The notes beneath the pieces were generated by a model. It was not told the DNA's origin and ran no database searches. It worked only from the letters and a program-made list of their open reading frames with translations. Below, one piece after another: positions 31,453 through 57,963 of a stretch of 64,000 nt of DNA (the first letter of the stretch is position 1; every line of letters begins with the position of its first letter). Source of the stretch: Psammoneis japonica (taxonomy: Eukaryota); contig QPGO01000147.1 in the NCBI GenBank assembly GCA_008632985.1, positions 62,001 to 126,000 of the forward strand, given 5' to 3'. The position numbers and the translations under genes were made by a program.

Positions 31453-31834
31453 GGTCGTCGAACGAAGGAAGTGAGAAAGAAGAAAACAAAATCGTGCGCC
31501 ACATTTCTGTGGGTTGGGTAATATTCCTTCATGAACGAATAAATCAAATTGTTTGGATTCCATGACCACGTCATCAGCCACCATGGCTGATAGATACTGA
31601 ATGAATGAAAGGTTCGGCACGTGCACCAAGACCGCTCAAAAGGCATATCCACTGACAAACGGATACCATACAGATATCAACACGTGCGTGTTTTTCAATT
31701 TGTGGTGCGCGCATGCTGTTCGTTGCTGTTGATGTTGGCATCGTGATGGCACATGCATTGAACATGCACATCTTGGATCGTTCCTTCAAGGTAGATAGGG
31801 CACTTTGTATTATCTGTGTGATTGATTGAACAAG

Positions 31835-33457
31835 ATGACAAGGCTTGGTACTCTGGTTCTCATTAGTATTGCAACTTATGCAAATGTCGCCTCGGCATTT
31901 ACTACAACAACGACGTCTCGGCATGCTGTGTTGCCTCGGCATCCGCCTGTAGTAGCTCCCAAGTTTGTTTTTTCGTATCCTTCGTCGTTTCGTCGTGTTG
32001 AATTCCGCAGCAAGAAACAACAACAGCAGAATCCCCTATACATGGCTGACGATGAAAATCAAGACGAGTCGCCTTCTGAAGAAGAAACAAAAGATACTCC
32101 TCCTACTTCTGGTGGCACGGCTACCATTCCAAACGAAGTCTTCAATCTCGTCAAATCCATTGTCGGTGCGGGAGTACTGAGTTTACCAGCAGGCATTGCC
32201 GCGTTTGGCGATGCACCTTCTGCCGCGTGGCCAGCTGTCGCCTTGATTGCCGCGATTGGTAGCTTGTCGGGCTATGCCTTTTCTCTGATTGGACGTGTCT
32301 GTTCCTACACGGGTGCAACCTCGTATAAAGATGCATGGACCGAATCGGTGGGTTCGTCCACCAGTTGGATACCCGCAGTCAGTTGTACCTTTAAAACCGT
32401 CGCTGCCGTTTTGGCGTACAGCATGATTTTGGCAGACACGTCCACGTCCCTCTTGACCACGGCGGGCGTTGCCTCGACACGCACCAAATCACTTCTTGGC
32501 GTCACGGGGCTCATCTTGTTGCCCTTGTGTTGGTTGAAGAACCTTTCTTCACTCGCACCCTTTTCACTCTTGGGTAGTTTGGGTATGGGCTATACCGCTG
32601 TCGCCATGGGCATTCGTTGCTTTGGACCCGCCTACAAAAAGGGTGGCAAGTACTTGGCCGACGTTGCGACCGAGTTGCAACCATCCTTTGGAACCAAGGG
32701 TGCCTCCAGTGTCTTGTCTCCCAATTCCTTTATACTCATTTGCATGCTTTCCACGGCATTCATGGCACACTTTAACGCTCCCAAGTTTTATACAGAACTC
32801 AAGGACAATACCATTGCACGATACAACAAGGTCGTGTCGACGAGCTTTGGTATTTCCATTGGACTCTTTGCTGCCATTGCGAGTTTGGGCTTCTTAACGT
32901 TTGGTGCCGCCAGTTCGGGATTGATTCTCAACAATTATTCCAACGCCGATGCGCTCATGAGTCTGAGCCGTATTGCCGTCTTTGTTAGTTTGATCTTTTC
33001 GTGAGTATTTGTGTATAAATTGTAGTGTGGTATCTCTGTTTCTGAGTAGCTCGCATCTCAACCCGTACTTTGCTATACTTCTCGCTCTATTATTGTAATA
33101 CACAGTTATCCGCTCGTTTTCCTTGGAGTCCGCGATGGTTTCATGGACTTGTTCAACGTCAAGGACCGGTCCAATAGCAAACTCAATGCCTTCACGGTTG
33201 GTCTACTGGGAGGTGTGACAGCCTTGGCACTCAAGGTGAAAGATTTGAGTTTTGTCTTGGCCTTTGGCGGAGCAACGCTGGGCAATTCGCTCATTTATAT
33301 TTATCCAGCGCTCATGTTTCGATCGGCCGTCAAGAATATGTCGAGTCCAACAAAGGGACAAGAAATGGAAGGCAAACTCGCCCTGGGCATGGCAGGCCTT
33401 GGAGCGGCACTGGGATTGACGGGAGCTAGAATGGCAATCAAGAATCTGGCGCTGTAG
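31835..33457 (+). CDS. Amino-acid transporter Aa_trans/SLC38-like, paralog 2, with ASAF plastid-type presequence; exons 31835-33000, 33106-33457
   Basis: Same motifs as paralog 1. N terminus MTRLGTLVLISIATYANVASA-FTTTT. The intron 33001-33105 lies at the same F-S-Y-P position. Confidence 0.92.
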
Positions 33458-33763
33458 AGTGGGAGACGTACATGTATGTGATATTGGAGCGTTGTGTGGT
33501 GTTACATGTTGTGAATCGAATTAGGGTTGTTTGGAGGATGCATTATATAAATGCATACTATCGCTTTGTAACGCGCTCGCGTCGGGAGAAACGCGGCAGC
33601 TAAGAATTAAAGAAATAACTAAGCAGTTCCATAGTCATCAGAACGTATTCTATTTTCCCACATCTACATTTGCTACCTAGGCGTACTACATATAGACCGC
33701 ATTGGGGTCCGACCTGCCACATGAGTAGCGCACAATCGACACTGCGCCTCAAATGAAATGCTG

Positions 33764-33819
33764 GGCACTCAAAGAAACACGACGCAAGTTCGGCACTCAA
33801 AAAACACGACGCAACTTCG
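33764..33819. repeat. 28-bp direct tandem duplication (ggcactcaaa.aaacacgacgcaa.ttc)
   Basis: Read directly from the sequence. Confidence 0.7.
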
Positions 33820-33835
33820 AATGACCTCCCCGCCC

Positions 33836-34924
33836 CTACAACTCTCGAAGATTACCAAACATCTCCAATCCAGTTCCATGCCAGTGTTTGGCATCACCGT
33901 TCGTGTTTGCACGAACTCGGAAGAAACCATAAAACGAGTCTGTGCTTTTCACTTTCCAAATGAATCGCTCGTACCTCTCTAGCATGTTAGTCGCATACTC
34001 ATCCTCACTAACAGAAGATGCTTCGTTCTCCTCCCGCCTTATAGCCACATCAAAGTCATGCTCAATGCCGCCCTCATGCTCTTGAAGTGGTTCCCACTCC
34101 TTGCCATCGGTCGATGCCTCAAAAATCCAAGGAGCATCCAACCCGTCGCAACATTCATATCGAAGAGAGTAGTGTGTTGGACAGAGTGATGCATTTCGTA
34201 GCGCAACTGTAGCTGTCCATCCATCGTCTACAGGGAAGCATGGTGTGAAGTCAGAATGAACAAGGCGAACGTCAATGTAATATTCGGGGTCGGGGGGTGC
34301 TTTGCACTGTGGGCGATGCTGGACAAACATTGAGCGGGTCAACGCAGATCCAGCTTTGTACCGTTCCCCCGTTTCTTCTGTGTCCAAAGACTCGTCACAC
34401 CATCCGCCGACGTGTACCTTGCCGCTCATGTGGGGGTTGCTGTACGTTTCGCGTCCATAGTCCGTGCCGAGCAAGTACAACACACCACGATTCTGGGAAT
34501 TCGGTGGGCATGAGTGCACTGGCGGTTCACAATTGGTGGCAAGGTCATCCAACCCGTAAAACATAGCTTCGTCGCGAAGCCTGCTCCAGAAACCTTTATT
34601 TTCAAGGTACGGTTGGGGCAGCATGTTTTCGATCTCGCCCGTTCTCAAGAACTCGAGAATGCACCTGAACAACTCAGGATCGCGGTCGATGAAATAAATC
34701 GTTCGTCCCCACTGATCCTGTCCATAGACGCCTCCAGGAGTCATGTCGTTGGTAGTGTTTCCAAAGCGAGCTGCAAAATACGAGCCACCAACGCGTGTGA
34801 GCGTCGAGAGGTACGCATCAAAGTTTTCTCCTCCGACACGCAACACAACGATGGGATCGTCACGACGGATTTCGGCCTTGTGCGCTTCAGTCCATGGGTC
34901 TGCAGAGTCTGCGTCACTCGACAT
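33836..34924 (-). CDS. BTB/POZ (KCTD/T1-type) protein with C-terminal galactose-binding-like domain
   Basis: LRVGGENF...STLT...YFAARF...YFIDRDPELFRCILEFLRTG, then NRGVLYLLGT...NPH...PTHYSLR...WIFEASTDGKEW...LEMFG. Start assumed at MSSDADS (34924). Confidence 0.82.
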   Translation of the reverse strand: MSSDADSADPWTEAHKAEIRRDDPIVVLRVGGENFDAYLSTLTRVGGSYFAARFGNTTNDMTPGGVYGQDQWGRTIYFIDRDPELFRCILEFLRTGEIENMLPQPYLENKGFWSRLRDEAMFYGLDDLATNCEPPVHSCPPNSQNRGVLYLLGTDYGRETYSNPHMSGKVHVGGWCDESLDTEETGERYKAGSALTRSMFVQHRPQCKAPPDPEYYIDVRLVHSDFTPCFPVDDGWTATVALRNASLCPTHYSLRYECCDGLDAPWIFEASTDGKEWEPLQEHEGGIEHDFDVAIRREENEASSVSEDEYATNMLERYERFIWKVKSTDSFYGFFRVRANTNGDAKHWHGTGLEMFGNLREL

Positions 34925-35222
34925 CCTTGGTACGACAACTGGAAGAAATACAACAACAACAACAATGCAGGAGATGAAACGCAACAGCAATGCGAGATTA
35001 TGAAGTCAGTCCATCGTGATCAGCCATGGCCATCGCTGCGAAGCACCAAAACGGTCGGAGTAGCCACGTTATTTTTGCGGTTTGTTTTACTAATAAATTG
35101 TTGTTGGTTATTTGCAAAAATAACAAAAACCAAGTGACGCTATGGTTGTGTCTCGTATTCGCACACCCCATACTCCTCGAATTCGGAACCAACCCGTTGT
35201 TCTAAATATCACGTAAAGAGAA

Positions 35223-36167
35223 TCATGTGGGTTTCCTGAATAGCTCAGGTTTGGCCTTGATAACAAGGTGACGGAGGTTGTGGTTCTCGCCAACCCGTTC
35301 CAACACCTTGGCCCAAATACCATCGGGAACGGAATCACGACGCAACAACAGCAAAATGTGCCGCAACAGCTCACGGTCCCTTTCAATCTCAGACACAAGC
35401 TCCTTGTGAATGCCGAGCCATAAACGAGAAGGATCAACCTTCCTATTTTGCTTCACGCCGTCCACTAGGGCTGCCTCCCCGTCATCTCCAAAAGAGTCCC
35501 GCGTCACAATCACACGCCCGATTGTGCCGTTTTGCGCAATCATTTGTCCAAGGGCTCTTGCACCACCGTCTCCAATATTGTTTTTATCAAGTTTAAGGAT
35601 ATCAACGGATGAGTTTTCATGCATGCTCCCGGCCAACGCAATGGCTCCCTTTTGCCCAATGCGACAATTCGACAACCACAAAACTTTCAGTTTGCGATTT
35701 TTCAGCAACATTTTTCCAATGCATTCTGCACCTCGATCTCCGAGTGCATTTCCAGAGAGGGAGATAAGCCTGATTACTGTGCTTTGCTCAAGCACTTCGC
35801 ACAAAGACTTGACACCCTCGGGGCCAATGCCGTTTCGACCCAGACAGAGATTCTCAAGCCGAAAAAGAGAAGGGATGACTTTCGACAAACACTTGACACC
35901 GTCATCCCCAATCTTGTTGCCACTTACATCAAGGGCAGACAGCTTTGGGAGCAACAAAAGGGCTCGAGACAAATGGTCCATTCCCTCTGAATCAATGTTG
36001 CAATTAATCAAATCAAGATGCGTTAATTCGCAAAAGGACGGAAGGACTCGGCACAATAGCTGGACACCTTCGGCATCGATTTCATCAGCATAAATGTGGA
36101 TGTGATAGACCTCACTTGGGTTTGTTTCGGCAAACACCACTTGCAAGCTCTCGCGCAAAGCTCTCAT
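35223..36167 (-). CDS. RI-like leucine-rich repeat protein (NLRC3-type LRRs)
   Basis: 28-aa repeats such as LDVSGNKIGDDGVKCL, LCLGRNGIGPEGVKSL, LSGNALGDRGAECI and LKLDKNNIGDGGARAL. Start at 36167 or upstream at 36320. Confidence 0.85.
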   Translation of the reverse strand: MRALRESLQVVFAETNPSEVYHIHIYADEIDAEGVQLLCRVLPSFCELTHLDLINCNIDSEGMDHLSRALLLLPKLSALDVSGNKIGDDGVKCLSKVIPSLFRLENLCLGRNGIGPEGVKSLCEVLEQSTVIRLISLSGNALGDRGAECIGKMLLKNRKLKVLWLSNCRIGQKGAIALAGSMHENSSVDILKLDKNNIGDGGARALGQMIAQNGTIGRVIVTRDSFGDDGEAALVDGVKQNRKVDPSRLWLGIHKELVSEIERDRELLRHILLLLRRDSVPDGIWAKVLERVGENHNLRHLVIKAKPELFRKPT

Positions 36168-37247
36168 TGCAAATGTGGGAGAGACTTGGCAAATGCAACA
36201 ACAAGCACACTGCAAAAATAAATCGGACTTCGGAGTGCGGCGGCTGTGGCATGGGCTTTTGTTTTGAGGCTGTCGTGAATTTAGCCAGTGGCTAAAAACC
36301 TCCTGTAGAATTCTACGCATTTCTCCTAGTATGCGATTAATTTAATGATAACGTCTTTTTTAAAAAACGCTACCCCATTGTTTTCTTTTATATACATATT
36401 AATATTTAAAGTTTTTTTTATGTATTTTTATACAGAGCATTATGGTTCAAAAATTCAAATTCAACGGATACTAGACCTTCATCGACGAATTTAACATAGC
36501 ATGGAGCGAAGTGACGTCACCTCGCGAACACCGTTGGCTGTGTTGGACGACACCAACAATGGCGACAATGGCGGTTCCAAATCGACGCCCACGAAACCCC
36601 CTGCCAAAAGAGCAAGAGTGGAGACTCGAGACCTTACCCTTCTTACGAGTGAGCAAGTACAAGCAAAGAGATTGAGCGAGAAGACTTGCTGCAATTGCAC
36701 CTTGGGGTCAACTTGCCAAACACGTGGTTGCTCATGCTGCAAACATGACCGACAGTGTGCCAACTGTGTTTGCGTCCACAAATGTAAGAACAAGGAAGGA
36801 CTCCCAACTTGTGGTATAAGTAACAGGAATTCGGACAAGAAGACACGGAAACTTCTAACCTCCCCAGAAACCAGTCCACTTCAACCGAAAATTTGTCAAC
36901 TCATCAACGACACCCCTGATGATGCCGACAAACAAAACAAAAACAAGGCCAACCCCGAAGCCAACAAAGAAAACATCGCACCCAATAATCAGAGGACGGA
37001 CACTGACGAGGGTAGAAATGATGAGGAGGTCACTGCCGCCACAAGGGACAGTGAGCGGTCGGAGGACAGATCGGGCTCGGAGGGAGCTGTCATTCCGTCA
37101 ATTGACGACACCAGCAACACACCCAACGACTTCAATTCAGACGCAGAACGGATCATCTGCGAGACACACGGTGAGACATGTCACCTAAGTGCTGGCACTG
37201 AGCTGGATGGTGGGACACTGGACGACAAAACGTGGCACAAGAGCATT

Positions 37248-37629
37248 GGCGCCGGCCGACGCGTTCCAGCCCTGGGTGGGAGCTCGCAGCACTGACGTGT
37301 GACACAAATAATTTTTATCATCCGTCGCATGTTTTGCACGTAGATTTCTACGTGTGACATTTAAAAAGAATTGTCCAGACTTGCTGTTTTGCGAAGCCCC
37401 ACAGACGTTTTGCACAACGAGTTTATAGAAACAACAAACTGGCCAAGTAAAAAATGATGTGCTTCAATCATGGGCGAGTTTGTGCATTCGCAAAATTGCC
37501 TCATTTTCTGTTGGCGATCATTGACATTTTAATTGCTGCACAATTTTGCTGCGGAGCTCGCATGCAGAAGTCTGCGGGCCCAATGTCACACGGATTCCCA
37601 CCTGCGTCTGGAACGCATCGGCCAGTGCC
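37248..37629. mobile_element. About 380-bp MITE with ~35-bp imperfect TIRs inserted in the CRE ORF
   Basis: Left end ggcgccggccgacgcgttccagccctgggtggga; right end reverse-complemented ggcactggccgatgcgttccagacgcaggtggga. AT-rich non-coding interior. It separates DDKTWHKSI from CPSQRCNAP. TSD not resolved. Confidence 0.72.
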
Positions 37630-37836
37630 CTGTCCATCGCAACGATGCAACGCACCAAATGGCTCGGTTGGCAAACGATTCATTGCAACGTTGGCAGAAC
37701 TGCTGGATGGAGTCACGAGGCGGAAGTGGAACTCGGAAAGATTCATGGCACATCAGACGGTTGTTTCACAGTGAGACCGCAACGTAAAAGGAGCCAAAGA
37801 TGTCAGAACTTTGCTCAGCACGCGCATGGACGATTG

Positions 37837-40800
37837 AAAAACAAAACAAAACCAAACTTCTACATTTTAAGTGCTGCTGCGCTTCCACCCCGCAACTCCG
37901 GCAACAAGCTAACCCACACTCCCAGCACACAATTAGTGCGGCAGGAGCAAATGGCAATCAGCCGAGATCGGCATCACCCGAGACTGGTTTGAACATTGCC
38001 AGCCAGCTGCGAATCCGATGAGTTGAATGCATCAAATGATCTTCCACCGAATCCAATGAGAGCGCCTTGTCTCTCGCAAGGTGATCATCCGTACGAGAAC
38101 AAATCGCTTTAACCTCTGCTTCCACGTCTCTCCTTTGAGAGGACTTTCTAGTTTCCGAATCGTGTCCGTGTGCAGCGTCATTGTGAGCATCCCACAGGTC
38201 CCACCACTGCTCCCATACAAAGTTCCCAACAGTTGCCGCCCAATCCAAACGTTTCTGTTGGTCCGAAAGGGTCCGACAAATGCCGCTCGACGTAAGACAG
38301 GAGGTTTGTGTCGCATTCCATTGGACCGAAAAATGACCACTAAACAACTGACGCCAACCCATTTCTCCTTGGGAATGGAAAACGGGGACGACGCTGTGAT
38401 GAAATTGCTCAGAGTAAAGAAGCTCGTCTCGAAACCATGCTTCAACAGCCGAAATGATCAAGTCTCGTAAGGAGGGAGACGTGTGAATGTCGTCGCACTT
38501 CTTGCGCAGGCCTTGTAAAAATTTTCTGCGCCAGGCCTCATTGTGAGGACAACGGAGAATGTGGTCTCTGTCTTCCATGGGGTCCTGACAGTGCACACAA
38601 CAGTCCGGACGTGTTGGATTGCATCTGTGCACGATTTTGTTAGTGGGCAGAAGATCTTGAACCAGCTTGACAGTGCTGACTTTTCGACGAACATTCCGTG
38701 ACATCAGTTTCGCGTGAACGTCCCAATCGATCGATGCGCAGACTTCGTCGGACCAACCACATTTCTCTTTCATGCAGTCGACCAGCGCGGGACTCGATGC
38801 CTGATGTCGCAGGACCGGCTTGTATTTGGACGAGACGGTGGCTCCTTGGAGGATCAGATTTGCTCGACAGTGAGGCACACGGGGGGCTTCAAGAGTGTCG
38901 CCAGAAAATTGGCCTTGGAACTGTCCTGCCAATCTGTCAGCCCGCATGTTCAACTTCGCCGCCAAGGATGAAGACTCCACAGGAAGAGCATCATCTTGGT
39001 GACCTTTCACCCAATGAATCTCATGACAGGACACTGCAGTTCGTCAGTGCTGACCTCGGATGCTTGTCGCAGGGAGTGAAAAATTTCATTGACAATGTCC
39101 CAGTCTGGTGAGAGGGTGTCAGCAATGTGATGCCGCCATTGAAAGTCATCGGCTCCTTGAGCATCCTCTGCTTCGGGAGGAGAAGGAATCACCTGGAAAT
39201 TCGAGATGTTGCGAATGAGTGAAGAATTGTCGCAATGCAAGTCAGCGCCTCTTAAAGATGAAGAACAATGTTCTGTCAATCGGATCAGGAAACGGAGAAA
39301 GGACAGCATGCCGCATGCTTCAGCTCGGCAAGAAGATGGGCGAAAACCGAAAACCGGACCTGCGCAATCCACAAGAGGTGTCCCATCGATTGTGATCGTC
39401 CAACCAAAGGCACCTCGAAATTGAAGGACCGAGCCGTCGCCACCCGCTGACGCTTGGTGGGTCGCAAAGATGTCGGCGATTTCGAATGTTGACCGGTGCA
39501 GTGTGATTTCCTCAAACAGGGACGATTCCCAACAAGATAGAGACCACAGCACAGAGAGAAAATCATCAGGGACGGGAGGCAAAGTTGGCAAGAAGACTGG
39601 AGCACCAGAAGACCGAATTCGCCAATGACCGTTTCTGATGGCATCCACAAGCACCGGGGATGCCGCAGGGGAAAGATCTGGGACAGTTTCCAAGGCCGCA
39701 ATCGAGTCAGCATGACCGTGTTTCACCGGAAACATTTGAAATCCAGCATCCGAACGGATGCACAAGTGATCTTCGGAGGGTTCGTGGCATGCCACGTGTG
39801 ACATTCGCATTTCCGTGGCTGGTGTGAGCCATTGACCCAGGGGATCTCGGAGATCAAAAGAATCGTCCTTGCAAAATAAGGAACAAGCTCTTCGCCACTG
39901 TTTCCAAGCTCGAGCAGACGGGCGTTGTTGTTCAACGGGGTTCAGAGCACTGCGGCTGCTAAAAAGGGACAATCGGCCGTCGACTTTAAAGGAGTCAAGC
40001 GAGAGGCCATCTGGAAGAGCAACATCCGACAGTGTCAGTGCGTCAAGATGTGACCGACAGCAGTTGACCCACCTGATCTCCCAATCACTGAAGGTGCCCG
40101 ATTCAAGTGCAACGTCCACAACATGTTGGTTGTTGTCTCGCTGTGGCGGGAGGACGCCAGGCTCGTCACAGTCAATGGAAGCATCAATCCTTGCCAAGAA
40201 AGATCGGAGAGACACAAACCAGCATGATTCCGAATGAGGCAACTTGGCAGGAACGTCTTTTAGAAAACCAACTCCCGCTCCAATCTGCAACTGAATCCAT
40301 GACACTGCAATGCAAGACAGAGCTTGAGGTTGTCCTGTCCCGCGCCAGTGACGAAGAAACTGCAGAACTTGAGCAACTCCTTGTTTGACGTCTAAGGACC
40401 TGAAACCGCCACCTCCCAGGGAACATGGTCCAAATGGAACATCTCGTTTCGAATTTCGACCACATCCGCATTTGGCAAAAATCACACGCATGGCCTTTCT
40501 TTGTGCCTCTGACAACTCTTTCTCCTTGAAATGGGCATTTGGGAGAACGCAGGTGGTCGAGGACAGGCAGCAGGCAAAACAATGGGTCCAAGCCTCGTGT
40601 CTGTCAAGGGGGCAAGAACAAAGAAACAAGGCAGTGCCATCGCTCTTCTGTTTGAGGGCCGTGTGTTGAGTCTTTTGCGCACCGCGGAGCTTTGTGATGA
40701 CCAAGTGTCTTGTGAGCAGAACAAGCAGACAGTTGTTTGCTAGACCGTGTCGCAGTTCGGTCAGCAGAAGAGATTTCAACATCGATCTCCTCATTGCATG

Positions 40801-43800
40801 GTCGCAGGTGTGGTTCCCCGTCATCTGTGAACATCCACTTGATTGCGTGGAAGGAGCACTTGGGCAGTTCTAACTCGTGTCCAGCTGCATTCAAAAGGTC
40901 ACACCACAGCTGATTGTCCTCCTGCATCTTTGGAGCCAATTCCAGAATGCAAGGTTGAGGAGACGCACAAAAGGCATTCACCTGTTTGGATGCATCATCC
41001 ATGTGTCCACGATTGAACATCTGCAGAGAAAGAGAGTGGTCAGGGGTCTCGAAACAGGCACCGTGTGCACGTTGATCGAAAATCTGAAACAAACTGTTGC
41101 AGATTTGGTTCCAGTGGAACGGGGAGTTTCCACCACCCTGTCCAGTGCCGTAAATCGGAAAGTCATCGGAATGGGAACAAGAACCTTGAGACAGGCCGAG
41201 CACCGTGCGCAACCAGTGTCGAGCCTTGTGAAGAGTCGAGTTGGCAACCTGGGTGACTTCTTTGGGCATTCTGTTGCCACGGCTTTCAATTGCCACCAAA
41301 GCAGGGATGTTTCTGTCGCAGCACGAAGTGCAATCGTCATCACTGTGAACAGCAGACTTGCGTGCAGCTCTGCTGATCTCCAGCATGAGTTCCTCAAGGT
41401 GCTCGGGAGTGTTGGCATTTAAGAAAGCGCGAGCACCGTAGATCCCAGAATTGCACAGTCGACGTTGCTCCACATTTTGAGCTGGAGCACGCCACTTGAC
41501 GCTCGAGATCAATTGAAAGTCGGCTTCGCATGTGTGGACAACTCGAAGACGATGAATCTTGTTGTTGCCCGGATCTTTGAAAATCATGACATTTACGATG
41601 TCTTGCCAATGGTGAAACGAACACCCCCAGCGGAGAGCGCAATTTAGCAAATTCAACCTGATTTGAATGAGGGTGTGTTGAACTTCATCGAGGGCCTCAC
41701 GATCAACAGTGGGATTGCCTTCTGAATCCGCAGCCTCAGAAAATCGATGAGGAGCATGCATTGCCTTCCAATGACCGAGATGGAGTCCAGAATGTGTGGA
41801 CGCAGTGGCAGTTTCTGTCCAACGTTTTATTTTCCCTTCGAGGTCTGAGGCAGAAAGGAGGTTTGGCACTGACACTGGTGACCGTTGTCGTAAGTGTTTG
41901 ATGAAAAGAGCTGTTGCTTCATTCAAAGCAGACGTGTCATGCTTGCCATTGAGAATGAGATCCGCCACAATCGTGTCACCTTCACAACCAAGGTCCACCG
42001 ACAGTGGAGGGACTGTTGGGGGTGTGCCGTGTGCTTGACCAAAGTGTTTCTGACTCCGTTGACGGAGAGCAGTTGCTGCGTCTTCCGGAGCATCGACAGT
42101 GACCCAGTCTTGACATTCTTTCGGAGGAATGGAGGGATTGCGAGGAACTTGTACACTCTGTGTGCCAGTGTCCTTCTGGGCACGACAAGAATCTATCTTC
42201 TTGAACAATTTCTTCATTTCTTCTGCCTTGCGGATGTTGCGCAATGCAGTGGCCTGCTTGCGGGAAGCCTTGGTGTTTTCTAAATCGAGTGCTGCTGTCT
42301 TTTCTGACATCTCCCGTTCACGGTGGACCACGCTGTCGGCAGCTGAGTGCTTGCAGTCTTCCTGAGCAGCACGCAACTCTTGTTGACACTCTTGCAAAGT
42401 CTCCGGAACAGAAAAGGATCCACTGAGTTTATCCCGAATCGACCGAATCTGTGAGATGTGGTCTAATTTTGTCCGCATCATTGACACGAGGCATGAAAAG
42501 ACATGCACCCTGTGTCTCAAATCTGCCAGTTCTACCAACCAGTCTGGTTTGCGGTGAGAGCGGCATTTCTTGGCGGCAGCGAGGGAGAACTGGGTAAGAT
42601 CACGGTCTGGGCGTTCTGCCAATGCATGATTTGGAGTTTCGAGGTCAATTGACTGACGCGACCTCTCCAATGCTGAGTGGCTCTGAATCACAGGGCTGAT
42701 GGCTTGAAGACAAGTGGTGATCTGAGGTTTGGATGTTGCCTGAAGATCCCGGAAAGATGCCTTGGGTAGATCGATGGTGGGATTGCCAAAAAGGGCCACC
42801 GTGTCAAAATCCACAAAGCAAGCACGATGATCAGACGCAAATCTATAACCAAAAGCTTCGCATCCACCGAACCGTGCCGCAGCGAGAGCACCAGGTGAGG
42901 CGAGTGCATGGTCGAGGCGCTTAGAACCCCTCGTGTGTGCAGTGAAGTCGTTGTCGCCCACAATGTCAAACAGAACGTCGGACAAATCAAAACGTTGTGC
43001 AACAGCAGCCAAAGAGTCTGTGTCGAAGTTGAAATCAGTGTTAAAATCGCCAAAGATGATCACCTCCCCATTCGGCTCTGCCATGAAGTCCTGCAAAACA
43101 TGGGACAAGTCGGTGCAAAAGGCTTTCCTGGGGTCGAGGATCTGACGGCCTTGTTGTCGGAGAAGAGACATTTGCTGAGCATGAGCTGTTGTTTTCCCCG
43201 GGTGTTGTTGGTTTTTAGCGCAAACTCAATGGCAAGAGACAAACATCACTTGGCGTCCGTTCCTGCCGTCGAAAACTTGAATGGACCACCGACCGAGTGG
43301 GTCTGATTCTTGAGTCCGAAAACGTGCTGATGTCGAATTGCAAGACAACAAAGCCGTGCCACCTGGTTTGCATTGAGTGGTGAAGGTGGCAGAGCTGGTC
43401 GAGAAAGTGGATCACCCGTGGTGCAGAGATTTGGAGACAGTGGAACGGCAAACAGAGAGAACATCAAATTGGGCAGTGTCCAGACACACTTCGGAGATGC
43501 CGATGACGTCGGCTTGGATTTCCGAAGCAATTTGACAGCACTCATTTACATCCCCGCCGCGCTTGTCGAACTTGCAACCATTGGCGTTAAAGGCGCACAG
43601 ACGTGCATGATGCGGAAGCTTGGGTCGAAGTGCATCGCCCATGGGTTCATTGGTCTTGAGGCGAGAAAAATCGATCCGGCGATCAGCAGGAGGATGATGG
43701 CTGCGTCCATCGAGAATTTGCTGCCATGCGAGAGAGGGATCATCAGTCGAAATCGCACTGCTCATGGTTGGGCCGTGCTCCTCTGAAGAGAAGACTGAGG

Positions 43801-45797
43801 CTCAGAGCACTGCATTAACTTGAGGTTCGGTTGAAAGGAGAAAGGCCGACATCTGGAGGTCCGACGAAAAATGGAAGTTAAAGTAAGAGGTGAGTGGAGC
43901 CGAGTGACAATGTCGGGAGGACGCCCAATTTCTTGAGGGGGTGGAGGCGGCGAGATCCAACCCCTGCCTGAAAATCCGATTCCCTGTCTTTGTCATCCCC
44001 AGGGCGCTCGGGAGTTTCCATGTGGTTGGGGCGTTTTCTGGCGGAGCTCTGAGACGGTTGACTTGCTTGAAGGAGTTTAGCTGTTTGGTTCATTTGGTCC
44101 TGCATGGCAGCCAGTTGCTGGGAGCATTGTGACTGAAGTGCGGCCATGTCTTGAGTGTGTTGTTTGTTGAACGTGTCATTCAAAGCTTCCACATCCTTGG
44201 AATGCTGTTGGCGGAGTTCGGCCAGGGCCTGATCGTTCTCATGTTGCATCTGAGACAACGTCTGTTGCACTTCCGCCATCTGAGCTGAAGCAAGAGAGGA
44301 GCTCGACGTAGATTGAGCAGCTTGAGCACAAGACAATTGGGGAGACGGCATGCCAGGGCATCCAGCACAACCAAGTTTCGACAGAGATTGGGAGGAAAGG
44401 GGGGTGAAGATCTGAGGTGGAACCGGAGAACCTCGCGTGGGACCTCGACCGGGGAATCCTCGTCCTGCACATCCGCGACCAGGATGAGATTGCGATGGAG
44501 GGTGATGATGCGCACTGGGAGCATGAGTGTCTGTCAAAGGAGAAACGTCCAAAAAGGTTGGGGATTCGAGACTGCAAATGCTCGCAGAGACGATGGATTT
44601 GCTGGTCTCCGACGGTTCGTCAAAAACGCCTGAGACTTGAGGATGATCTGGGAAGGGAGGAGTCGGGTGAGATTCTTCCGGCAGATCTGGAATGAGATTC
44701 ATGACACACGTGGAAATTGCGGCACGTGCTGTCTTGAAATCCACTCGATTGACGAGAACATTGTGCCTCCCGTCGGCGGAGTTAGAGGCGCAAATGTCCT
44801 GCATGCCTTTCAAGGCCCCAATGTTTTGTTCGAAGTAGAACATCACACCTGGGGAAGCACACAAGAGCGGGACGATGCATGTGTTTTCATTGCGGCGGGC
44901 TTGAGTTTTGACAGCGTTGTAGAAGGCCAAGGGAGAGAGGTGACGGGTCTTGGCCATCACGACATGGGTCGGGAGTTTGTTAGATGCGCGCAACAAGACT
45001 CTCCCGGCATTGCGACACTCATCATTTTGAACCTCAATGGCAAAAGTCGTTGTGCGAATGGGAGTGGCGAGTTTGTCATTGTCTGCTCGGATTGACGCAG
45101 GCACCAGACGAAACTTTGGCATCTTGGTCTTGAATTCACCCAAATCTCCAAGAAACTTTTTGGTGGCGTCGTCGACTGGAGCATGTTTCGCAGCGGCAGC
45201 AATGTGGCAGGCCGGTGTCGCCGTGTCAATCACTGATTCATTCCAGGCGTGTCGTTTCATGCCCACATCACTCAGATCCAAAATGCTTTGAACATGAGGA
45301 TGAGAGCGAATTTCGCGAAGCGGTGACTTTGTAAGAATGCGATGACATGAGCGATGGGTGACCGGGCGTTTTTCACCACTGCGAGCAGTGGAGATGACGA
45401 AGTGACGTTCGTGCTGAAGGGAGGAAATCCAATCAGCCACATTGATTTGCGTGATTCAGTTGTTGTGGTCATCAAGGATTTGCACGTCTTTATGATGCGT
45501 GAAAAGAATCTGCTGTAAGACTTGTAAATGGGCAGTGACAAGAGTCATCGGCTTGCATGTCGCTGCAGGGCCATGAATTTCGAAGCGAAGAGTGATCTCT
45601 TCGAACTGACGCTCTTTCGGTTTAGAAGACGACTTAAGAGAAGTCTGATCAACGGTGGTGTCATCTGCCATGGTGGCGTTGTGGATGGGAGGAGGGGCAT
45701 GGCTGCCGTCAACGACGGAAGGAGACGCCATGGTGATCGGCTGTTCTACGGGGAGCCTGGTGCTGAAAACACGCAGGTGTGTTCAGTGCCAGCAATC
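37837..45797 (-). mobile_element. Apparently full-length Ambal-like LINE (ORF1; ORF2 = APE endonuclease, RT, RNase H), inactivated, flanked by 9-bp TSD GGACGATTG
   Basis: Identical GGACGATTG at 37828-37836 and 45798-45806. ORF1 at 45731-43878. APE motifs (FNANG, IQADVIGISE, FGDFN, RLDH, SDHRA). RT (GTGQGGGNSP, GHMDD). RNase H (GDGSV...FGW, RAEACG, CDN, WVKGHQD, NMRADRLA). T-rich 3' tail. Confidence 0.88.
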
Positions 45798-48700
45798 GGA
45801 CGATTGGGACGCGGGCAAGCACAAAATGCTGGTCCAATCAACGGAGCGGCTACTTGAAGCGAACCTAAAGACCATTCAAAGGGAGGAAATGCCTGAGCAG
45901 TGCACCAAGACATTCAACAGAATGGTGCTCCGAGGGAACCTACGAGGAGTGGTTGGGTGCATCTCTGAACGTGAAAAAGGTGGGATTCTCTTGCCGGATG
46001 ACATCGACGAAAAGACCAACAACACAGTGTTTGAAGTCCTTCAGAAGAAGCATCCAAACCAGAGGATCCTGGACAAAGACCACTTTCACAAATTCAGCGA
46101 ACTGCCTGAACTCCAGGACATGCTCATCACCGATGGCACCATCGAAACCGTCGCACGGAGACTGTCCGGAGGCGCAGGACTTGGTGGGTCTGATGCCAAC
46201 GCAGTGTCAGAGTGGCTTCTCCATCACGGAAAAGCCAGCGGATTGCTTGGAGAAGTGTTGTGCATGTTCGCGAACTGGCCAGCAAACGAGTCCCCCCGTG
46301 GGCCGCATGCCGTGCAATCATGGCGAAGAGACTCGTCGCGCCAGACAAAAATCCAGGCGCACGCCCAGTCGGTGTGGGGGAGGTGTGGCAATGAGCCACG
46401 CCAAAGCCGTTCTCCTGGTTGCTGGAGCAGAAGCCAAGGAAGCTTGTGGCACAGATCAGCTTTGCGCTGGACTGGAAGCAGGCATCGAAGGTGCCGTTCA
46501 CACTGTGAACCTGCTCTGGGAGCAACACAAATTCGAAGACGACTGCGGTTTCCTCTTTGTCGACGCCTCCAACGGATTCAACGAAGAGAATCGGATCCCA
46601 ACGCCACACAACGTAAGGCACCTGTGGCCATCGGGTGCAAGGTTCACCTTCAACAGTCACAAGCATTGGAGCATCCTGATCATCCGTGGAAACTTCGGAA
46701 CCGCCTTCATCTTGTTCAGCAAGGAAGGCGTCACGCAGGGCGATCCACTTGGCATGGCAGCATGCGGACCAGGCCTTCTTCCACCAGTCCGCGAGATGAA
46801 TGAACATTTCAAAGATGCACTCACACCATGGTACGCCGACGACTCCGCAGCAGCAGGAAATTTCGAGACACTGCGAGAATTCTTCCTCAGTCTCCGAGCC
46901 GAAGGCCCCAAACATGGCTGCTGCCCCACCGACAACTCCAAGAACATCCTGGCAGTCCCAGAACGCAACCTGGAAAACGCTGGAACATGCTTTGGAGATC
47001 CAGGCTTTACCATCAAGTCTGGCAGCCGTCACCTCGGAGGCTTCATTGGAGAGTCCGACGCGCGCGACCAATGGCTGGCGGAAAAGCCGAGTCATGGACC
47101 TCGGTCGTCCAGGGACTCGCCAAAATCGCAATTCATCACCCTCAGACCGCCCATGCCGGTCTGCAGAAGTCCCCACAACACCAGTGGCAATGCGTCCAAC
47201 GTGCAGTTAAGGACTGCGGCGAATCGTTTGCCGACGTAGAACGCGCAATGCAGCGCAATTTCCTGCCGGCTTTGACAGGTGAGACCCTGGCAGACGACGA
47301 CCCGAGACTAGCCCCATCCGCCCTCCCAATCAAATTTTCGGGACTGTCCATCCCTCGTCCAACTGAGTCCGCAGCTCACAACTACAAAGCAAGTGCTCTC
47401 ACGTGTTCCCACATGATTGACTCACTCCGCGGCCACTCCCAGTTCTCATCCGCAGTCCACAAGGACACCACATGCGAAGTGAAACAAGAAGTGGCCGATC
47501 GAAAGGTTGTGGCGCACAAGGAGACCCTCAAAACGATCCTCAGGACCTCACCCGACCTCCAGGCCAGAGCTGTCAAGCGCAGCACCAAGACAGGCGCGTG
47601 GCTCTCAGCGCCCTTTGACACTGAATGGCACGGAACTCTCATGCCAAGAGTTCCGCGACGCGCTCTTCCTGCGGCATGGCAGCACTCCACCGGACCTCCC
47701 AGAGCACTGCGATGGATGTGGATGCAAATTCACAATGAACCACGCCCTTCAGTGCAAGAAGGGCGGCCTGGTCATCTCACGACACGATGAAGTCCGTGAC
47801 AACCCAGGCAACCCAATGGGCAAGGCTTGCAAACCTTCCTGCGCACGTGACGAACCTCCAGTCAACCCCACTGGTCGCAGCGCAGGAAGCTCAAGCACCC
47901 CCACCAGCTCCCCAGGAAACACCAACTCCAACAAGTCCAAGGATGGCGATCGCGGTGACCTTCTCGGCATGCAATTCTGGGATGGAAGGACAGACATGGT
48001 GACGGATGTTCGCATTCCGACACGGATGCGAAGTCACACCCATCCAAAACACCAGAGGATGTCCTGGCAATGCACGAACGGGAGAAAAAGCGCAAGCACC
48101 TCAAGCCCTGTCTTGAGCAACGCCGTCATTTCACGCCCTTCGTAGTGTCATGCGACGGACTCTTTGGCAAAGAAGCCAAAGCAATGCTGCGCAAGACAGC
48201 CTTGAGACTGTCAGACAAATGGCAAAAGCCATGCTCTGAAGCACGCGGCTGCGTCAATGCGAGAATGAGCATCACCACAGTCCGGGCGACTCACCGTTGC
48301 CTCCGGGGATCCTGCATTCCCGCCTCTCACATCAGCTCCAGACGACCCCAGTGAGAAGACGGCGCTGGTCTGTCCCCGCACAGACACCAAATGACCCCGC
48401 CCAACTGACTGCACCCTTCCAGACAACATGCCAACTGACTGTCCACCCACAACATCGACATCGTGCCTGGAAGTTGACAAAAGCCCACCATCACCCCGAA
48501 AACGGTGCCACAACTATTTCAAATTTCGCGCGCACAGCCTGCAATCTTGCGCGTGACAACTGCCCCTCATTTGCACGACTGCGTTGGCTGTGCAACACCC
48601 ACTTGTCCATTTTTCTTTAAAGCTCAGACGTCACAGTTAGCTTCAAACTGTCATGTGTGGCAATTGTTTCAAAAATGAAACACATTCGTTTGGTCTTAGC

Positions 48701-51700
48701 GCCAGCAAAAACCGGGGCGTGGCACCCGGGTTTTCACATTGGCGACAGCCGTTAGACCAAAAAACAAATGTATGTTGACAATGGACTAAATCCCTTTTAG
48801 CCCTCTCTTCATCACTGTTGATCCATGCACATGCAGCAGCAACTGCCACAAACCAATTGCCGACTGCTGTGCTAAAGAAATGAGCGGCAGTGCAACGTCA
48901 AACAAGCAAGGACACTGGTGCACACAAATGACGGGCCGGCTTGTCACACTTTTGATTGGGCAAACACAAAAAAAACTCATCACCCATGACGAGTGCCGCC
49001 GCCGCCGCGTCGCCTTGCAGCTCCACTAAAATGACACTGACGGCTCTCTCACACAACACACACAATCCAAGAGTGTTCAAGTGGCTGTTGAGCTCTCAAG
49101 ATTGTTGAGAGATGGTTGAATGGGGTCACCCGATGCCATGCACTGAGTGCTGCTGCTGCTGCATTGTGCTGCAGCTGGACCGAGGAGAGGCAAAGAATGC
49201 TGATTGATGCCACAGACAGCTTGTCAATCATTGCAGTGCTAAAGTTGGAGTTGGAATGTGATGGAGGCACAATGCCATGCAACACAGCTGGTCATGACAC
49301 GAGCTGGTGCACCACCATTTTCAAGAAGGATGTGGGTGCCGGATGCTGCCGAGCAGAAGTTGGAGAAAAAATGCTGGAGTGAGACAGGAGAAAACCATGT
49401 GTGAGCAACAAGTTTGTGTTTTGATGGATCAAATGGCTGAAATTGAAATCAAGCATGCTCCAGTTGTCAACAGAGCTGCAGCGTTGCCATGGGCAGTTTT
49501 GCCTCCCACATGCTGGACACTGCTGCAGAACAAACCACAAGTCTTGGATGAAGTCAATTGGCTGGAGAGTTGCCACAGGAACCTTCTGTGAATGACACTC
49601 CACCCAATGAAAGGCTCATGTCACCCACTTTGTTGGAGTCATTGAGAATTTTTTCAGAGGCACTGCGCACAAGAAGCGTCGCATCGCACCCCCCCAGTGC
49701 CAGATTCCAAAGAACAGGGAAGTGCAGACAATGACAATGGTGGTGTGCAAGTTTCAATCTGAAGGTCACATCACTTCTTTCTCCAGATGAGGAGTGCACA
49801 GCACTGGCAAACAAGGCTGAGAACATGAAAAAATCAACCGTCAAACCACAGCAGACAGACACATCATTGAGTTGATCCACAGATTGTTGAGGAAAGTGGG
49901 GGCTGCTGTTGACACTTTGCATTGTCTGGACTGGCTTGATGATGAGCCATGTGTGTGCATGTTGCATGCTTGGCATTGAGTGAAATTGACCCAACTGACA
50001 TTGATGGTGGATGATGCAATCTCATTGACCCCCAAGTGAAGAAACCTGAGTTGTTGGTGTGCTCACTCATTCAAAGCATGACACAAAGCCAGTCATGACA
50101 GCATTCAAGACTGTCGCTGGGAGTGAAAGCCGGTGCAATGACTCTTTTCATTTCCATCCACTGGCAGTGGGTGTTGTTGATCTTGCCTCTCCTCAACAAG
50201 CAATTGAGAATGTGCTTGAGCAAGTCAGGGGCGGACACCATGTCAATGAGAAATGACTGTTTCATTCCCATTGATCTTTTCCAATGATGCCCCCAGAAGT
50301 CATGACATTTCAATCAGTGGAGCCAATGCGAGCATCAAGCGGTGTGTTTCAAAGTTTGCTCCTCTGAAACAATTTCAGAAGTCAGAAATGATGTGAGTGC
50401 GAGTGTGGTGTTGCTCAGTCACTCAGTTGACTGGGCTGTGGTGGCAGTTGGTGACTTTTCAACCCTGCAATCACCATGTTTGCAGACTCCTGTTCTGGCA
50501 TTGTGCATTTTGGTGGTGCACATTGGCCCGTTTGGGTTCTTCATGTTGTTCATGGGGGCAATGCCTTGCAGTGGACTTCTGTGCACTTTGCCATGCCAGC
50601 TGCTCTCCATGCTTGCGCACACATGTCTGAGGGAAGTTTTGAGAAATCAATCTCTGTGCGGTGCAGTGGTGGAATGCTGTGGCTGCTTTGCCTTGTTTAA
50701 GTTGCATGGATCTTCTGCCAAAAATGTTGAAATTTGCAATTTCCAACTTTGCATGCAAAACACCATGAGCAAGATCTGTCATTTGCAGCTGCCAGCAGTT
50801 TGTTTGAAGAAGTGATTCACCAAAAATGGAGCTGCAGTCCATCATTGTGCAGTGTCAGACACAATGACAATGACTGACATTTTGGATGCCCTTGTGCAGA
50901 GATCATCTTGACGGACATCTCCCATCATGCTTCTGGTGGCCGACTTGGGCTGTGACTGTGACGGGAGCCATGTTTGCTGTCTTTTTTCTGTTCCATTCCA
51001 AAACAAAAAAGGGTGCATCAATTCATGTTCCTGTCAATTCAATCTCACCATTTACAAGCAAGAATGAAATTGTGATTTTTGTGCCCACCCTCTGCCCCTG
51101 CAAACCTGCAAATTAAAATCATTTGCGTTGTGCCACAAACATTCCATTTTGTTGTTTGCATTTAACCCAAACAATGCTGAAGGAGACAACACCTCACAAG
51201 TTTGCAGCAGCAGTTGCAGCTCTCTTTCTTGAAGTGCCGTTGCCAGCAGCCACCTTGTTCATTGCCAAAAAGTGTGCCAGAGTGCATTGTGAGAGCACAG
51301 TGCAATGTGGCAATGACCGAATCAACATGGTCATGACAGACCAAAAGACATGGGTGCAGAAAAACCACAACATTTTAGCAGGAATGCAGGACCAACACCC
51401 TCACAAAGGCCGGCAGGCAGCAGAAATTGCTTGCATCACTGACTGACATCACAGATCAGGAACTTTTGCTTTGTTGCACTTTTCAAGTCTGAGACCTGAA
51501 CAATTCATCGCGAACATCGATTTTGCATCAAGAGAATTCAAGAGGGATTTTGGATTCAGCAATGGTGTGGCAGTTCTCAAGTCTTGAGCAGCAAGCCATC
51601 ACACTTCTTCTTCTTCCATCCAACTTGCTGTGTCCAACAGCCCCAATCATGACGGGTGAGCAGAGCAAGATTTGTGAGGCAGTGGACGACTTGCAAGCAC

Positions 51701-54520: not shown

Positions 54521-55116
54521 GACCACATCATCAGTCCATTGCGGTGCACATTGAGATTGTGTCACATGCAACAAGAAGACGATGTCGAACAAAATCCCAC
54601 CCGGCACAAGCCCTGAGCTGCATTGCGTGGAATTGGGTCAGTTGGAAATTGAGCATGTTGCTGAGTGCCAGTCAAATGCTGGGTGGTTCAAGGCACATCA
54701 GAACTCATTGACATCATCCAGGGTGGACATGCAGGTCAGCATTCAGCTCAGGCTGCTGGACAAAGAATGAAATGAGCATCATCATCATTGGGTCAAGTTT
54801 GAAAAGCACCTTGACATGAACTTGGGTTTGACCAATGAAGAGGATGCTGGAGCGAGTGCCCAAGAGACCAACGCAGCAGCCGATGTGGAACCTGTGGGAG
54901 ACAGTGCCTCTGGCCCAAGCGCAGATGGCAAAACCACACCAAAGTCAATCAAGTGGAGGAACACTTCAATCTTGATGATCCATGGTTTGACCCAGACATG
55001 GATGCAGATGCCCGACTTTCACAAGTTGACAGGGAGCATGATGAGGCAGAAGAAGTGGAGGCAAAGGTCAAGGAGATTCTTGCTGATGTGACGGACATGG
55101 CGGAATGAAACAATGA

Positions 55117-57920: not shown

Positions 57921-57963
57921 GCTGGCTTGCATGCTGGCTTGCATGCTGGCTTGCATGCTGGCT
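57921..57963. repeat. 12-bp tandem repeat (gctggcttgcat) x3.5
   Basis: Read directly from the sequence. Confidence 0.85.

Follow-up and report, generated by a model that had tools for sequence, protein, structure and literature searches.

Footprint of TpA-directed A:T to G:C mutation in retrotransposons and other non-genic DNA of the diatom Psammoneis japonica

Background

Hypermutation that turns TpA into TpG or CpA has been described for viral DNA integrated in the genome of the chlorarachniophyte Bigelowiella natans. The source is a preprint (Mettrop et al., bioRxiv 10.64898/2026.01.13.699255, 2026), and all statements on B. natans made here follow its main text. According to this text, two integrated viral regions account for 231 of the 302 new single-nucleotide mutations, and 230 of these 231 are A to G or T to C changes, all on TpA; the rate, about 6e-7 compared to 3.5e-10, is approximately 1000 times the background, with 11 of the 15 lines involved, and the mutations arise in place during vegetative growth. 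Domains of the reverse transcriptase (RT), endonuclease-RT and DDE types are over-represented among the TpA-depleted genes of B. natans, approximately 95 Mb contain 124 depleted clusters, a hypermutable giant-virus region shows a rho of 0.45, and an ADAT2-like protein is proposed as the candidate enzyme, without proof. The words “diatom”, “CpG”, “context” and “trinucleotide” do not occur in the main text of the preprint. Here, a footprint of the same direction is described in a 64,000-base stretch of the Psammoneis japonica genome (assembly GCA_008632985.1, contig QPGO01000147.1, positions 62,001 to 126,000 of the forward strand; hereinafter, the window), where it extends over two nested elements that resemble long interspersed nuclear elements (LINEs), denoted LINE-1 and LINE-2, and over intergenic DNA that contains no recognizable genes.

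The likeness to B. natans, as far as it appears from the main text of the preprint, consists in the conversion of TpA to TpG or CpA on either strand, its confinement to foreign DNA and the accompanying rise in G+C; in the window, likewise, the changes are from A:T to G:C on TpA, both strands are affected and the host genes are spared. The differences lie in the host, a diatom here and a chlorarachniophyte there; in the evidence, a fossil footprint as opposed to measured new mutations; and in the extent, given that the observed/expected ratio (o/e) of TA drops to 0.03-0.15 over 47% of the window, which is far deeper and wider than the depletion presented in that text. A search of the literature found no report of TpA hypermutation or of a process resembling repeat-induced point mutation (RIP) among diatoms, and no report of TpA hypermutation beyond the B. 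natans preprint. A preceding interpretation of the window, made from its letters and their translations (hereinafter, the sequence-only reading), had proposed a RIP-like process directed at TpA and had stated that its author knew of no such pathway in diatoms. In the literature searched, this holds for diatoms, but a process of this kind had already been described in B. natans in the 2026 preprint. The present case is new in that it concerns another major lineage, hits mainly retrotransposons, leaves a much deeper footprint, shows a code of flanking bases together with a strand motif, is coupled with CpG decay and has its signature also in marine metagenomes.

Several other systems share some of these features. 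Similarly to the case described here, fungal RIP involves wholesale transitions in chromosomal transposons, on both strands, with a dinucleotide preference and a dead element as the outcome. However, RIP changes C to T, mostly in CpA, and so creates TpA and lowers G+C, whereas in the window TpA is depleted, CpA and TpG are enriched and G+C is elevated, in agreement with the proposal that the two processes run in opposite directions. Furthermore, RIP creates stop codons, which conversion of TA to TG or CA cannot do. The APOBEC3/AID and ADAR families represent deaminase hypermutation against mobile or foreign nucleic acid, and ADAR prefers a 5' U, but APOBEC changes C, on one strand. The ADARs are animal proteins that act on double-stranded RNA, tolerate a 5' A and favor a 3' G; here, in contrast, AA is untouched, resistance is greatest in the TAG and TAA contexts, and blocks that are not retroelements are affected as well. 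In the older blocks of the window, decay of 5-methylcytosine accounts for the loss of CpG and contributes to the increase in TG/CA, but it cannot remove TA, and at five borders the TA-free zone is wider than the CG-poor core. The TadA/ADAT2 family shows a preference for an A preceded by U or T. The natural site of bacterial TadA, U-A-C, resembles the 5'-TAY-3' preference described below, although, to our knowledge, no TadA/ADAT2 enzyme has been tied to a TpA footprint in any organism. The ADAT2 proteins of amphioxus and trypanosomes are reported to edit DNA (as cited in the main text of 10.64898/2026.01.13.699255).

Results and discussion

Depletion of TpA in the window

The sequence-only reading was focused on the region 36490-48620, and the two TA counts on which it was based, one in 46021-46620 and nine in 17041-17340, are exact. 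This region contains 98 TA (o/e 0.15) compared to approximately 418 expected at an o/e of 0.62 (Poisson P = 2.5e-79), the latter being the value for the window's own non-depleted DNA, which serves as the “ordinary DNA” baseline throughout; the o/e of CG, TG and CA in the same region are 0.83, 1.43 and 1.34, respectively. Two-state segmentation of the whole window in 100-bp bins shows that the loss of TA extends beyond this region, with four low-TA blocks in the window (Table 1) that together comprise 29,800 of the 64,000 bases, with Poisson P values between 1e-26 and 1e-213 for the individual blocks.

The changes in dinucleotide composition are largely restricted to TA, CG and CA/TG, for which the o/e are 0.62, 1.01 and 1.16 in ordinary DNA; 0.12, 0.83 and 1.38 in the LINE block (37501-48600); and 0.05, 0.22 and 1.83 in the combined 2301-5200, 13601-16300 and 48601-58900 segments, which are referred to below as the older blocks. 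By our arithmetic, the gain of CA/TG is close to the amount predicted if the TA that is missing, and in the older blocks also the missing CG, had been converted. The o/e of AA/TT is 1.20-1.24 in the low-TA blocks and 1.17 in ordinary DNA, and the remaining dinucleotides change little. The G+C content of the LINE block is 0.50-0.58, compared to 0.43-0.51 in ordinary DNA.

The affected DNA consists of transposons or of intergenic DNA that cannot be identified, and its borders to the genes are sharp, within about 100 bp, in support of the sequence-only reading. A Pfam scan of the 145 stop-free open reading frames (ORFs) of at least 70 amino acids in the TA- and CG-depleted blocks yields six matches, with E-values of 0.003-0.006, all below the cut-offs, and comparison of the window to itself detects no similarity among the depleted blocks, the small internal duplication in one of them (Table 1) being the only hit. 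In the genes of the window, TA is under-represented as well, with an o/e of 0.55-0.7; the values for the eleven host ORFs range from 0.30 to 0.72.

As far as the data allow a judgment, the TA-free sequence did not arise in the assembly. K-mer contigs of 0.8-5.2 kb, built from one public DNA run, cover 48,800-53,500 at a depth of 55-61 with one to three other letters and one to five gaps each, and a host-gene contig from the same run has a depth of 55.8 and no differences. A point in favor of a sequencing or polishing error, such as the miscalling of TA as TG or CA due to a modified base, is that the run might represent the assembly's own data. Nevertheless, an artefact is highly improbable because contigs at single-copy depth agree almost completely with the TA- and CG-free sequence, and because the same signature is carried by sequences that are independent of this assembly, namely two loci from unrelated metagenome assemblies (L011 and L021) and a database protein (P0233), all of which are described below.

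Directional mutation in the LINE frames

The relatives of the LINE proteins were aligned frame by frame (150 representatives and six first matches for LINE-1; 120 matches for LINE-2), and a column was treated as conserved if one residue is common to at least half of the aligned relatives. The Tyr codons are of particular value in such alignments because these are the only codons in which either direction of change, TA to TG and TA to CA, alters the residue. Over all frames, the window keeps Tyr in one of the 25 conserved Tyr columns, with Cys in 15 of the others, His in seven, and Trp and Asp in one each, compared to 531 of the 678 other conserved columns that are kept. In the 873-amino-acid frame of LINE-1 (40604-43225), none of the 11 Tyr is retained (7 Cys, 3 His, 1 Trp), as opposed to 205 of the 269 other columns, a difference that is significant for this frame alone (Fisher P = 2.9e-7). 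The respective counts are 0 of 6 (4 Cys, 1 His, 1 Asp) and 112 of 134 for the frame 39007-40869, 0 of 2 (2 Cys) and 57 of 73 for 37958-39043, 1 of 5 (2 Cys, 2 His) and 106 of 136 for 45869-47239, and 0 of 1 (1 His) and 51 of 66 for 46804-47790. The overall composition of the 873-amino-acid frame is shifted in the same manner, with 0.3% Tyr, 3.4% Cys and 5.15% His compared to the relatives' medians of 3.27%, 1.65% and 4.17%, respectively.

A single TA to TG or TA to CA event is sufficient to explain 32 of the 125 changed conserved columns; all six Leu to Pro changes have the codon CCA, and two of the three Val to Ala changes have GCA. The nine peptide strings in which the sequence-only reading had recognized altered Tyr positions are all present (Table 1). 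The consensus that it assumed for them is borne out by the Tyr columns of the relatives, with the exception of QCVQR, at which Phe (WQFVQR) prevails among the relatives and Tyr is limited to some of them.

For a comparison of DNA sequences, 79 metagenome loci from the LINE-2 family were used. The TA o/e of these loci is 0.22-0.79, with a median of 0.55, compared to 0.09 in the RT frame of the window. The window LINE-2 is 64-71% identical to the metagenome loci, which is too distant for site-by-site polarization, so majority dinucleotides were examined instead, in columns covered by at least 30 loci. The window keeps TA in one of the seven majority-TA columns (the others are 3 CA, 2 TG and 1 TT), as opposed to 246 of the 366 columns with other majority dinucleotides. 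After TA, retention is poorest for AT (8 of 27), which is replaced by GT (7) and AC (7), as predicted from TAT to TGT and ATA to ACA changes.

These observations bear on the simplest alternative, namely that no mutational process operates and that the scarcity of TA is either native to the families or caused by selection against TA. Although TA is indeed under-represented everywhere in the window, genes included, the relatives of the two elements contain 3.0-4.0% Tyr and the TA content quoted above, and neither the Cys and His residues in Tyr positions of catalytic domains nor the frameshifts could result from selection for function. The probability of this alternative appears negligible. To judge from the Tyr columns, the metagenome loci and the majority dinucleotides, the loss of TA is directional mutation to TG and CA and not the families' own composition, as the sequence-only reading had maintained.

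According to the codon table, TA to TG or CA changes strip a gene of its Tyr, CTA, GTA and ATA codons, destroy TAG and TAA, and never create an in-frame stop. On the two strands of the LINE block, there are 104 TAA and TAG triplets compared to 452 TGA. The long overlapping ORFs of this block are thus explained by the same process, which removes TAA and TAG without making any stops, and the small number of ORFs in the older blocks is explained by the conversion of CpG to TpG, which turns CGA into TGA. As a consequence, dead elements retain long open frames that can mislead gene callers. Many long overlapping ORFs are indeed found in the six frames of 37501-48600, e.g., the minus-strand ORF 46127-47206 that lies over the LINE-2 RT.

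Both strands and independent events in sister copies

Both strands are affected, as had been inferred previously: the 15 Tyr to Cys changes correspond to A to G on the sense strand and the seven Tyr to His changes correspond to T to C, and CA/TG doublets are observed between copies. A strand bias calculated from all amino acid changes (18 A to G and 14 T to C) was set aside because synonymous changes mask one direction at two of the three codon positions.

A CA/TG doublet, i.e., CA in one copy aligned with TG in another, implies a single ancestral TA that was resolved differently in the two copies. In the internal duplication within 13573-16336 (185 aligned bases, 40 differences), there are 12 adjacent double transitions compared to approximately 4.2 expected (all eight kinds), and six of the 12 are CA/TG doublets. 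Within LINE-1, the window has CA at 40993-40994, whereas contigs of other LINE-1 copies have TG.

A pair of sister copies from outside the genome displays the spectrum directly. These loci of the LINE-2 family, L011 and L021, come from separate marine metagenome assemblies, share 94.5% of their letters over 1,760 bases and differ at 94 sites. Both are partly depleted (TA o/e 0.31 and 0.27, respectively), and Cys or His occupies four of the six conserved Tyr columns in L021 and two or more in L011. When the spectrum of differences is tabulated by context, a check that the sequence-only reading had recommended, 42 of the 94 sites are of the TA type: 22 fall in 11 CA/TG doublets, 10 are TA/TG and 10 are TA/CA. 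The remainder consists of eight CG/TG or CG/CA sites, 22 other transitions and 22 transversions. An outgroup locus, L010 (75% identical), has TA at five of the 11 doublets, at six of the 10 TA/TG sites and at three of the 10 TA/CA sites. The control consisted of every locus pair with at least 15 differences, 63 in total. In this set, the TA-type share is 0.46 for L011-L021 (12 doublets and 95 differences in the control alignment) and 0.04-0.28 for the 62 other pairs. In the database protein P0233, Cys or His is found at four of the seven conserved Tyr columns, and the sites are partly unlike those of the window.

Flank preference and strand motif

Survival of TA in the low-TA blocks relative to ordinary DNA, per unit length, is graded by the flanking bases: it is 0.45 for TTAA, 0.40 for CTAA/TTAG, 0.16 for GTAA/TTAC, 0.15 for CTAG, 0.13 for CTAC/GTAG, 0.035 for GTAC and about 0.03 for ATAN/NTAT; for ATAT, it is 0 of 180. 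The surviving sites are dispersed and do not cluster. There is a gradient, in which RTAY (ATAT, ATAC, GTAC) and ATAN sites are erased whereas YTAR sites (TTAA, CTAA/TTAG, CTAG) resist. The L011/L021 pair, which provides its own baseline, displays the same order, with 13 ATAN/NTAT sites mutated and two kept, compared to 12 mutated and 13 kept in all other contexts (Fisher P = 0.02). Among the latter, CTAG sites account for no mutated and five kept, and TTAA/CTAA/TTAG sites for one mutated and seven kept.

At strand-asymmetric sites (RTAR/YTAY), the changed A precedes a pyrimidine in 11 of the 14 cases in L011/L021 and in 10 of the 14 window Tyr codons that are preceded by a pyrimidine, i.e., in 21 of the 28 sites when pooled (binomial P of about 0.01 by our arithmetic). 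The target on each strand is mostly 5'-TAY-3', which accounts for the excess of Cys over His.

The flank hierarchy is relevant for the choice between possible agents. DNA polymerase eta makes A:T to G:C errors with a hotspot at WA, especially TA. Error-prone repair in heterochromatin, in which a Pol-eta-like polymerase would place G opposite T within WA motifs, had been considered in the sequence-only reading but fits poorly: AA/TT is not depleted in the low-TA blocks, so that the rule is TA and not WA, and the near-complete erasure of TA with a strict hierarchy of flanks, culminating in the disappearance of ATAT, resembles site recognition rather than errors of a polymerase. This explanation is very unlikely.

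Chemistry on thymine deserves somewhat more attention, given that the footprint is symmetric and, from the sequence alone, fits damage to T as well as damage to A. A dioxygenase of the TET/JBP type that oxidizes thymine at TpA would yield 5-hydroxymethyluracil or 5-formyluracil, which mispair with G and cause T to C changes, equivalent to A to G on the opposite strand. In dinoflagellates, 5-hydroxymethyluracil is enriched at TpA, and 5-formyluracil is mutagenic toward A:T to G:C. The 5'-TAY-3' preference can also be read as an R-T-A rule if T is the target and so does not separate the two chemistries. Furthermore, the product of a thymine dioxygenase is reported to silence dinoflagellate transposons (PMC11572971). 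However, no such base or enzyme in diatoms was found in the literature searched, and the authors of the B. natans study favor, in the main text of the preprint, an ADAT2-like deaminase, likewise without proof. On balance, thymine oxidation is quite unlikely to be the source of the footprint.

CpG loss, borders and targeting

In the LINEs, a fifth of the normal TA level remains, whereas CG has dropped by roughly one sixth; the logarithmic loss is about eight times faster for TA than for CpG (ln(0.12/0.62) compared to ln(0.83/1.01), our arithmetic). The three classes of depleted DNA form a series, from an insert in LINE-2 that resembles a miniature inverted-repeat transposable element (MITE), with TA and CG o/e of 0.35 and 1.07, to the LINEs (0.12 and 0.83) and to the older blocks (0.05 and 0.22). 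The depletion of TA is deeper in blocks of greater age as judged by CpG decay and, therefore, fits accumulation in place. The loss of CpG itself would be a second, slower process in the older blocks, most simply decay of 5-methylcytosine. At five borders of these blocks, the TA-free zone overshoots the CG-poor core by 85-360 bp (Table 1).

The suggestion that the process is directed at repeats, in the way that RIP is triggered by sequence duplication, receives no clear support. The LINE parts are multi-copy (summed depth of 240-2,900), yet 10 kb of the most depleted DNA is now present at single-copy depth, with matches to the contigs that have a depth of 55-61, and the MITE-like insert within LINE-2 (37238-37625) is only mildly depleted, with nine TA.

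The age trend and the borders also bear on whether the changes could have been introduced at retrotransposition, by an A-deaminase acting on the element RNA and the first-strand cDNA, with the chromosomal DNA untouched afterwards. Such editing would be compatible with the fact that the two best-characterized targets are retroelements and would equally produce CA/TG doublets between sister copies; it would also agree with the retention of eight TA in the 260-bp spacer (48,618-48,873) that separates the 3' end of LINE-2 from the next depleted block. Still, it appears unlikely. The 7.97-kb LINE-1 has lost 85-95% of its TA on both strands, which is far more than expected from a single passage; blocks that are older by CpG decay are more depleted; no retroelement signature is present in the most depleted 16 kb; the TA-free zones exceed the CG-poor cores; and, according to the main text of the preprint, the signature in B. 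natans arises in place, in integrated DNA viruses.

Proposed mechanism

The explanation that we consider probable is a DNA-level process that changes A:T to G:C at TpA, is aimed at silenced mobile DNA and acts in place. Under this hypothesis, A:T pairs in 5'-TpA-3' would be converted to G:C on either strand of the DNA; transposon-derived and other non-genic DNA would be targeted, with the neighboring genes spared; and the copies would be mutated after their formation, so that the changes build up with age. The TG and CA left in place of TA would ruin the proteins of the element without in-frame stops. The likeliest chemistry would be enzymatic deamination of adenine to hypoxanthine in DNA, with an adenine deaminase as the putative agent, guided to silenced or foreign chromatin. 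The process would be of the same kind as the TpA hypermutation in the mutation-accumulation lines of B. natans. Of these points, the direction from TA to TG or CA, its occurrence on both strands and independently in sister copies, the hierarchy of flanks and the confinement to non-genic DNA are observed in the sequences, whereas action in place on the chromosome, deaminase chemistry, a guiding signal and a role in defense are inferred.

Several points weigh against this hypothesis or complicate it. The 64-kb window encodes no deaminase or other candidate enzyme. The hierarchy of TA survival in the window leans on host DNA as the baseline. The attempt to assign a strand to each tetranucleotide from the excess of products over this baseline was dropped because the balance stays open (for ATAT, 76 sites are lost, and the two products gain 3 and 3). 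Apart from the caveat, mentioned above, on the origin of the public run, its contigs have, at many places of the multi-copy LINE part, only letters unlike those of the window, so that the LINE bases have no independent base-by-base match. The CA/TG doublets would also result from per-copy editing at retrotransposition, and the case for action in place is built on the age trend, which involves few blocks, and on the B. natans precedent. Finally, the TA-bearing spacer does not conform to a simple domain model: targeting looks element-wise in places (this spacer and the MITE-like insert) but overshoots the CG-poor core elsewhere, so that several guiding models fit.

A broader proposal, which we put forward tentatively and with considerable doubt, is that an ancient defense pathway shared by diatoms and chlorarachniophytes and guided by chromatin or small RNAs might employ a DNA adenine deaminase, possibly derived from TadA/ADAT2, that reads 5'-TAY-3' in silenced foreign DNA; in the genome studied here, this enzyme, rather than cytosine methylation, could be the main transposon killer and could shape about half of the sequence. 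If correct, the shared pathway would mirror fungal RIP, with A as the target, and would include a natural adenine editor capable of acting on double-stranded DNA.

Regardless of its exact scope, the footprint in a diatom suggests a widespread defense and not a curiosity of one species. A candidate enzyme must explain the TA (not WA) rule, the RTAY/YTAR flank code, the 5'-TAY-3' preference, a rate above that of CpG decay and the lack of stop creation. Diatoms are genetically tractable, and therefore a search for the enzyme by knock-out appears feasible. A natural adenine deaminase working on chromosomal DNA would be of interest to genome engineers.

Structure of the nested elements

Public contigs join position 37827 directly to 45798, with nine letters common to both sides, and a 9-bp target-site duplication, GGACGATTG, is present at 37828-37836 and 45798-45806. 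Hence LINE-1 (7,970 bp including one GGACGATTG copy) is a full-length insertion into LINE-2. The LINE-2 reading frame continues over the joint, and its relative P0012 matches both sides. The LINE-1 insertion is absent from other genomic copies.

The endonuclease followed by RT in one frame and the target-site duplication make LINE-1 a fitting member of the APE-type (apurinic/apyrimidinic endonuclease) retrotransposons without long terminal repeats. In the mutated copy of the window, the RT domain remains below the Pfam thresholds, and the relative P0001 carries both PF03372 and PF00078. For the upstream ORF of LINE-1, neither a Pfam family nor any relatives that could be aligned were found.

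The relatives of LINE-2 carry PF00078, and some of them occur in a diatom transcriptome set; for an intact relative, P0022, no Pfam family is detected at E-values of 0.001 or lower. The summed depth along LINE-2 climbs toward the 3' end, from 779 to 2,878, as 5'-truncated copies would give, and this rise and the RT are the features by which LINE-2 is provisionally classed as a LINE. Other copies in the run skip from approximately 37213/37237 to 37615/37634, that is, lack the MITE-like insert. The depth bins over 36836-38169 sum to 25,000-40,000, which indicates a very high-copy sequence, either the MITE-like insert or the 3' end of LINE-1.

Table 1. Coordinates of the low-TA blocks, the nested elements and the peptide strings with altered Tyr positions in the window
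Feature	Coordinates	Strand	Remarks
Low-TA block (segmentation)	2301-5200		TA count 9
TA-free block	2257-5211		CG-poor core narrower, ~2521-5033; TA borders 2257 and 5212, CG borders ~2520 and ~5033
Low-TA block (segmentation)	13601-16300		TA count 8
TA-free block	13573-16336		CG-poor core narrower, ~13816-15976; TA borders 13573 and 16337, CG borders ~13815 and ~15977; internal duplication 15188-15376 / 15618-15794
Low-TA block (segmentation)	37501-58900		TA count 108
Block depleted of TA and of CG, no recognizable gene	48874-58917	n/a	Segmentation, ORF/Pfam scan; TA border 58918, CG border ~58834
Low-TA block (segmentation)	61201-64000		TA count 19
Low-TA block running off the window end	61124-64000		CpG kept to ~63 kb; two ORFs inside
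LINE-2, 5' part	36490-37827	+	Cys-rich N-terminal ORF 36495-37295 and start of long ORF; TA o/e 0.30 in ORF (partial)
MITE-like 382-bp insert in LINE-2	37248-37629	.	34-nt inverted-repeat arms, 79% complementary
LINE-1	37828-45797	-	TA o/e 0.07-0.19 per kb; CpG mostly kept
LINE-1 endonuclease/RT frame, 873 aa	40604-43225	-	Pfam Exo_endo_phos, E = 1.6e-6; relatives with PF00078 and PF03372
LINE-1 downstream frames, via frameshifts	39007-40869, 37958-39043	-	Weak zf-RVT match below cutoff
LINE-1 upstream ORF, 525 aa	43878-45455	-	ORF1-like by position only; Tyr 0.4%, TA o/e 0.10
LINE-2, 3' part, RT	45798-48620	+	YADD intact; TA o/e 0.09 in 45869-47239
SSCRAEACG	39310-39336	-	
SCCDR	41312-41326	-	
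HTCEAD	41519-41536	-	
RLDH	42908-42919	-	
SRHLGG	47024-47041	+	
PQTAHAG	47140-47160	+	
QCVQR	47188-47202	+	
KKRKHL	48085-48102	+	
KPCSEARGCVN	48226-48258	+	

Other features of the window

The CpG-rich low-TA block at the end of the window contains two ORFs, 61058-62002 (314 amino acids) and 62471-63337 (288 amino acids), in which Tyr makes up 0-0.7% of the residues. The first of these shows a sub-threshold F-box match (17.4 bits compared to the cutoff of 20.5). The 61058-63337 segment may represent a host-derived gene or pseudogene caught by hypermutation. A Skp1-like tail that appeared to be encoded at 62471-62740 received no support on checking.

Two short low-TA stretches (o/e 0.11), at 24401-25000 and 35601-36000, lie within seemingly ordinary host ORFs (23056-25035 and the leucine-rich repeat gene 35223-36341, respectively) and may reflect the local amino acid composition or a limited spill-over.

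Among the neighboring genes, the one for a ClpB/ClpC-like chaperone is split into two minus-strand ORFs, 28496-29362 and 29650-31635, about 290 bp apart, which could be due to an intron or a frameshift. The named best matches of the ClpB-like ORF are all from diatoms, with 49-62% identity, and the Atlas cluster nearest to the FAD mono-oxygenase consists mostly of Bacillariophyta, as expected for a host that is a diatom or closely allied to diatoms; another Atlas query carried no taxonomic signal. The window also encodes three paralogous amino-acid transporters of the Aa_trans family (9227-10537, 31826-33004 and 59621-60445), the first two of which are 65% identical at the DNA level over 830 bp. 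GC-rich (64%) tandem repeats, whose period is about 186-228 bp, occupy 12245-12716, within overlapping long ORFs on both strands.

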